Origin: a virus
Taxonomy: Duplodnaviria; Heunggongvirae; Uroviricota; Caudoviricetes
Direction: 5' to 3' (one strand)
Virus record (IMG/VR): IMGVR_UViG_2839610755_000002
DNA length: 64,000 nucleotides
Shown: one piece after another, positions 39,044-39,060 of the stretch
Layout: every line of letters starts with the position of its first letter
Position numbering within the stretch: position 1 is the stretch's first letter
Made by a program: the position numbers and the translations under genes
The notes under the pieces: model-generated
Told to the model about the DNA's origin: nothing
The model's database searches: none
What the model saw: the letters and a program-made list of their open reading frames with translations, nothing else

Positions 39044-39060
39044 ATTGCACTAATAATTTT
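39044..39060. promoter_or_regulatory. operator-like site ATTGCACTAATAATTTT in a divergent promoter region
   Basis: 15/17 match to the C1 consensus with the TGCACTAAT variant core; between minus and plus gene blocks. Confidence 0.4.

Follow-up and report, generated by a model that had tools for sequence, protein, structure and literature searches.

The stretch of DNA analysed here (the window) is 64,000 nucleotides long and belongs to a P1-like phage-plasmid; whole-window BLAST against P1 places it in reverse orientation relative to the P1 map. Around the sites described below, BLAST returns 96–97% identity to P1 (AF234172, NC_005856), P7, SJ46, and RCS47. Most of the segments that the window shares with P1 are 94–99% identical, and a few segments are inserted or replaced. 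With ~96–98% identity over most of the shared segments, the window represents a P1-like variant and not P1 itself.

The cognate C1 repressor gene is encoded on the same element as the sites, as is an ORF for Lxc, which is annotated in P1 as an enhancer of C1 binding at all operators. A search of the PDB found no solved C1 structure. P1 has ~22 dispersed C1 operators with a 17-bp asymmetric consensus (PMC8546580), which reads ATTGCTCTAATAAATTT. The canonical core of this operator, TGCTCTAAT, is present in 13 copies in the window. The sites that concern us have A instead of T at operator position 6 (A6, as opposed to T6), and four of them contain the variant 9-mer TGCACTAAT. The genes and sites are as follows.

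c1, 15965-16816, plus strand: ORF for the 283-aa C1 repressor, 98.9% identical to P1 C1.100 by tblastn
lxc (bof), 10495-10743, plus strand: ORF for the 82-aa co-repressor, at the position of P1 lxc (9750-9998)
O26 (former Op82), 39044-39060, plus strand: ATTGCACTAATAATTTT, a protein_bind feature of AF234172, annotated as a monovalent C1-controlled operator
Oppp (former Op83), 38137-38153, plus strand: TATGCACTAATTAATTT, coincides with the annotated Oppp/Op83 of AF234172
Oc1a (former Op99a), 15854-15870, plus strand: AATGCACTAATAAATCT, annotated in AF234172
Oc1b-type degenerate inverted half-site, 15865-15881, minus strand: ACAAAAATAATAGATTT, matches the annotated P1 Oc1b
Omat (former Op2/Op2b), 12612-12628, minus strand: CATGCACTAATAAATAT, annotated in AF234172
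Obanb (former Op72b), 52465-52481, plus strand: ATTACACTAATAAATTT, annotated in P1 as half of the bivalent ban operator
Fifth exact TGCACTAAT, 50450-50458, plus strand: chance match

These sites were scored with a weight matrix derived from the P1 operators in which position 6 is neutral (the position-6-blind matrix). O26 sits in the gap between pmgL and gene 26, two divergent genes; its 9-mer occupies 39046-39054 (+), and it scores 25.7 bits. Oppp lies between the pmgM stop and pmgN, with the 9-mer at 38139-38147 (+), a score of 20.0 bits, and the 3' extension ATTATTTT. The last base of the coi stop codon is also the first base of Oc1a, which lies 95 bp ahead of c1 (9-mer at 15856-15864 (+), 24.0 bits). 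The operator is annotated as half of the bivalent autoregulatory operator Oc1ab, overlapping the Pc1 -35 element, and the Oc1b-type half-site overlaps it at an 11-bp offset. Omat, located upstream of mat, overlaps the stop codon of ref (9-mer at 12618-12626 (-), 21.1 bits) and is followed at 33 bp by the LPmat -22 box. A first-pass annotation of the window had reported the variant motif at these four sites. All four are real, with both the 9-mers and the full 17-mers located essentially where it had put them, and the contexts it described (the ref stop upstream of mat, the gap between coi and c1, and the divergent pmgL/gene 26 region) are also correct.

The earlier list omitted the fifth exact 9-mer (50450-50458) and a fifth operator with A at position 6, Obanb, which scores 23.2 bits in the window and was overlooked because its core reads TACACTAAT. 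The 50450 match was rejected as an operator: its 17-mer, GCTGCACTAATCAACGT, reaches only -1.9 bits outside position 6, and it falls inside the first codons of a 275-aa ORF (49646-50473, minus strand), so we regard it as a chance match. Compared with P1, the sequences of O26, Oc1a, and Omat are identical, and Oppp differs solely at position 1, which is T in the window and C in P1. The Omat feature of AF234172 (2628-2645) is an 18-bp feature on the minus strand, and its span maps to 12611-12628 of the window; the consensus orientation of Omat is the P1 plus strand, with CATGCACTAATAAATAT at 2628-2644, which amounts to a small annotation inconsistency.

C1 operator identity and the neighbouring late promoters

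AF234172 annotates 20 C1 binding sites, all of which were extracted for comparison. Five of the 20 have A at position 6, namely Omat, Obanb, O26, Oppp, and Oc1a. The four sites coincide positionally with Omat/Op2b, Oc1a/Op99a, Oppp/Op83, and O26/Op82 of that record, and they hold the same positions relative to the same genes as the C1 operators of P1/P7, with no difference of substance. Because the sites map onto annotated P1 operators, the A-variant motif is already known, as a catalogued subset of the C1 operator family.

The sequences of the sites agree with this assignment. The conserved core (T3, G4, C5, C7, T8, A9, A10, and T11) is intact at all four, and their position-6-blind scores of 20.0–25.7 bits fall within the range of the annotated P1 operators (13.9–27.1 bits). 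At a cutoff of 12 bits, the matrix finds 22 matches in the window against a mean of 1.3 in shuffled sequence. Nineteen sites of the window reach at least 18 bits, and position 6 is T in 13 of these, A in five, and C in one. The first-pass annotation had taken the consistent change at position 6 as a sign of a separate class of regulatory site. This proposal fails, since the A-variants fit the operator matrix outside position 6 like the T-variants (mean 23.0 versus 22.5 bits), and the orthologous c1-proximal operator has T in three divergent relatives, as detailed in the next section. When A- and T-variants were compared at the other positions, none of the 16 tests gave a significant difference, the best being position 2 (p = 0.037, uncorrected). 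Position 6 is the only degenerate core position in the P1/P7 lineage, and A6 is a tolerated, lineage-specific substitution, not the signature of another regulator. The base frequencies at this position (14 T to 5 A) suggest that A carries a small binding penalty, at most a few-fold. On this sequence evidence, we assign a probability of roughly 0.9 to the reading that the four sites are ordinary operators of the P1 master repressor C1 with A for T at position 6.

The leading example offered for a separate class was an Lpa-responsive late-promoter element, and late promoters are indeed found near two of the sites.

LP26, 39085-39103, plus strand: AAATGACTAGCGGTAGAAT, annotated, 22.2 bits on the late-promoter matrix
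LPmat, 12560-12578, minus strand: AAGTGACTTCAGTCAGAAT, annotated, 20.6 bits on the late-promoter matrix

LPmat lies 33 bp downstream of Omat (a coordinate difference of 34), and 24 bp (a coordinate difference of 25) separate O26 from LP26/LPpmgL. The likeness of the sites to the Lpa-dependent late promoters of P1 is one of proximity only (24–33 bp, at two sites), and the sequences are unrelated. The 11 annotated P1 late promoters share a AAGTGACTT-type -22 box that is followed by TANNNT and is unlike TGCACTAAT. On the late-promoter matrix, which was derived from 10 annotated P1 late promoters, the four sites score -4.2, -2.8, 1.0, and 5.1 bits, against 16.8–22.6 bits for the late-promoter-like sites of the window, including the annotated LPpro, LPmat, LPpac, and LP26. 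The true -22 boxes near Omat and O26 are separate elements that do not overlap the operators: LP26, whose sequence is unrelated to that of O26, is the real Lpa-type element of the pmgL/26 region. No late promoter lies close to Oc1a or Oppp. With no site matching the P1 late-promoter matrix, the Lpa reading is rejected on sequence, and we consider it exceedingly improbable. The other example given in the first-pass annotation, low-affinity operators, may or may not apply. The late-promoter matrix also picks out a late-promoter-like sequence, AAGTGACTGGTGATAACCT, where genes 25 and 7 meet (40790-40808 (+), 16.8 bits), and AF234172 has no late-promoter annotation for it.

As ordinary C1 operators, the four sites would act as established P1 biology and the annotation predict. 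In a lysogen, C1 produced from c1 (15965-16816) would bind each site, its binding would be strengthened by Lxc (PMC8546580), and the bound repressor would block an overlapping or adjacent sigma-70 promoter. The blocked promoter would be Pc1 at Oc1a, leading to c1 autoregulation; the pmgL and gene 26 promoters at O26; and PpmgN at Oppp; at Omat, either Pmat or read-through from ref would be blocked. Inactivation of C1 by Coi or Ant would release all of the operators together. The P1 record annotates promoters that overlap or adjoin the sites (the Pc1 -35, P1pmgL/P2pmgL, PpmgN, and Pmat). Scans of the window with sigma-70 consensus sequences gave no convincing promoter overlapping the sites: two scans returned no matches, and the others returned one or two weak matches, at about the chance level, that overlapped the sites by at most two bases. 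These scans are uninformative for A-variants and T-variants alike, and support for promoter occlusion therefore comes from the P1 annotation. The sites belong to the long-known dispersed network of C1 operators that silences P1 lytic and morphogenetic genes in the lysogen. This P1-like phage-plasmid appears to keep the full P1 immunity wiring, and the value of the finding lies chiefly in correct annotation.

Recurrence and conservation of A at position 6

Chance predicts 0.65 exact copies of TGCACTAAT in the window, which contains five; in 100 dinucleotide-preserving shuffles, this number was never reached. Among the 27 single-base variants of the TGCTCTAAT core, the T-to-A change is the commonest, with five copies against at most two for any other. 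The recurrence of the motif put forward in the first-pass annotation is therefore borne out, and it exceeds background.

Such a recurrence could in principle reflect chance or the mutational decay of canonical operators, with the A present in the absence of selective maintenance. The match at 50450 illustrates the contribution of chance to the five copies, and T and A do replace each other, at Oc1a when lineages are compared and at Omat among members of the population. Oppp truly decays in some loci: in a sample of P1/P7-like loci from IMG/VR (80 around c1 and 80 around pmgM), C5 is replaced by T in 16 of the 80 pmgM loci (L086-L165), giving TATGTACTAATTAATTT. Since C5 never varies among the P1 operators, part of the population may be losing Oppp or be able to do without it. 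The excess over shuffled sequence, however, speaks against chance, and the remainder of each operator is intact. Furthermore, the IMG/VR orthologues retain A6 in 80/80 cases for Oc1a, 80/80 for O26, 79/80 for Oppp, and 45/48 for Omat, while operator positions 1 and 12–16 vary over the same loci. A second count identified one Omat orthologue with T6. The complementary pattern is seen at every IMG/VR orthologue of Oc1c, Oc1d, Oc1e, Oref, and the site upstream of c8, all of which have T6. Each of the four sites is positionally orthologous to an annotated P1 operator and keeps the invariant core, and the A is almost fixed per site across the 160 loci. The sites look like functional regulatory sites, the earlier statement that they are not the product of random decay is well founded, and we regard chance or decay as a very unlikely explanation.

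The distribution of A6 outside the P1/P7 clade is different. The C1 proteins of the Cronobacter phage JK004 and the S. arizonae plasmid CP053320 are 76.7% and 79.5% identical to the C1 of the window; C1 of the Salmonella Newport plasmid pCVMN1543, which was compared with JK004 only, is 85.9% identical to JK004 C1. A C1-like protein from a Pantoea plasmid, with 22% identity, was set aside as too distant to inform the comparison. Counting operator-like sites at a threshold of at least 14 bits, we found T6 in 19/19 sites of JK004, 12/12 of pCVMN1543, and 11/11 of CP053320. In the alignment, the operator of the coi/c1 gap has the sequence AATGCTCTAATAAATCT in JK004, AGTGCTCTAATAAATCT in the Salmonella plasmids, and AATGCACTAATAAATCT in P1 and the window. 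Within the core of this c1-proximal operator (positions 3–11), position 6 is the sole difference between the relatives and P1; outside the core, both Salmonella plasmids have G at position 2. T and A differ at an orthologous site and therefore interchange at a functionally central operator. As judged from these alignments, A6 characterises the P1/P7 lineage and does not point to a separate site class of ancient origin. The occurrence of A6 at five operators in P1 versus 0/42 sites in the relatives is nevertheless more lopsided than a freely neutral position suggests. That position 6 can be T or A in P1/P7 but is always T in the Cronobacter and Salmonella relatives is a mildly new observation.

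A different core variant, ATTATTCTAAT, in which AT replaces G4 C5, occurs at the Oppp equivalent of the Salmonella plasmids (L168 30940-30956 and L169 33952-33968), at another site of JK004 (24822-24838), and at Omat in two or three IMG/VR loci. These sites may be decayed or weak operators.

A shared 24-nt form and possible bivalency

Three of the A6 operators have more in common than the 9-mer. Omat, Oc1a, and Oppp share the 24-nt sequence ATGCACTAATWAATNTATTATTTT, for which 0 matches are expected by chance.

24-nt form at Omat: 12604-12627, minus strand
24-nt form at Oc1a: 15855-15878, plus strand
24-nt form at Oppp: 38138-38161, plus strand

The 3' part of this form, TATTATTTT at positions 17–25, corresponds to the degenerate inverted half-site that the P1 annotation names Oc1b. 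The extension is found in 3/5 A-variants versus 0/14 T-variants (Fisher p = 0.010), an association that is post hoc and rests on 19 sites. In the IMG/VR loci, it accompanies 179 A-variant sites versus one T-variant site. O26 and Obanb are without it.

The obvious comparison is with the bivalent operator Oc1ab (Op99ab), of which Oc1a is one half. Omat and Oppp carry the TATTATTTT half-site at the same 11-bp offset as Oc1b, whereas O26 has no such half-site. Among the bivalent operators, Obanab (Op72ab) also includes an A6 site, its half Obanb. In contrast to Oc1ab, AF234172 lists Omat and Oppp as monovalent operators, and their second half-sites are degenerate, matching operator positions 8–17 only. 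The Oc1b-type TATTATTTT at Omat and Oppp suggests that these two operators are possibly built like Oc1ab and may likewise be bivalent. This resemblance, which is also mildly new, leads to a prediction on C1 stoichiometry and repression strength at the two operators.

A broader proposal would make the A6 sites a functionally tuned subclass of C1 operators, weaker or more Lxc-dependent than the others and serving graded repression, with Omat, Oc1a, and Oppp as bivalent operators of the Oc1ab type. The subclass would be placed at c1 autoregulation and at genes that have additional Lpa-dependent late promoters. The shared ATGCACTAATWAATNTATTATTTT, the identity of its 3' part with the annotated Oc1b half-site, and the association of the extension with A6, which holds in the IMG/VR loci, are in keeping with this proposal. 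So are the near fixation of A6 within the P1/P7 clade and the closeness of Omat and O26 to a late-promoter -22 box (33 and 24 bp, respectively), and the small binding penalty estimated from the base frequencies is compatible with tuning. However, O26 and Obanb belong to the A6 sites and do not share the extension, and the extension occurs together with T6 in relatives, for example at L168 16179-16195 and JK004 45441-45457. The orthologue of the autoregulatory operator in the relatives has T6, and A6 is therefore not required for autoregulation. The supporting statistics are also post hoc and drawn from 19 sites. A full-text literature search, with the primary operator papers outside its scope, gave nothing relevant on the affinities of Op99a, Op72, or Op82. 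Taken together, we find the tuned subclass possible but unlikely. It is slightly more doubtful that, within the P1/P7 clade only, A6 marks tuned C1 operators (weaker, Lxc-dependent, or bivalent) that at three sites combine the A with an A at position 2 and an Oc1b-like half-site. In that case, the contrast with the strictly T6 relatives would stem either from a lineage-specific relaxation of C1 specificity or from selection that favoured looser repression of c1, mat, pmgL/26, and the ppp operon.

Additional candidate operators in the window

The search for operators also revealed sites that are not annotated in P1. An operator-like sequence with C at position 6, ATTGCCCTAATGTATTT, lies at 3310-3326 (-) and scores 21.0 bits outside position 6. 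It corresponds to AF234172 17166-17182, where there is no C1 operator annotation. The 5' end of darB contains it, and the LPpro -22 box follows ~69 bp downstream. A near-consensus operator, ATTGCTCTAATAAATCT, is present at 77919-77935 of JK004, in the corresponding gap between darB and prt. The 3310-3326 sequence may be an unannotated C1 operator.

A second such site, ATTGCTCTAATTATTTG, has an intact core and is located at 13755-13771 (-), between the cre stop and the c8 start. The same c8 site in reference P1 (1485-1501) has a core change, ATTGCTATAATTATTTG, scores 15.4 bits, and is unannotated. The core is intact in most of the 62 IMG/VR orthologues of this site, and a C1 operator is thus probable at c8 in the majority of P1-like elements.

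Extra antirepressor modules have been described in other P1-like plasmids (PMC6906374). In the window, two segments of this kind that are 70–81% identical to the icd/ant1/ant2 region of P1 occupy positions where P1 does not have this region: one (16858-18157) between c1 and pacB, the other (45278-46797) between gene 5 and dbn. Each segment adjoins its own candidate C1 operator, at 18503-18519 (-) and at 46821-46853, respectively, the latter being a 33-bp palindromic pair, TTTGCTCTAATAAATCAAAATTATTAGAGCAAT.
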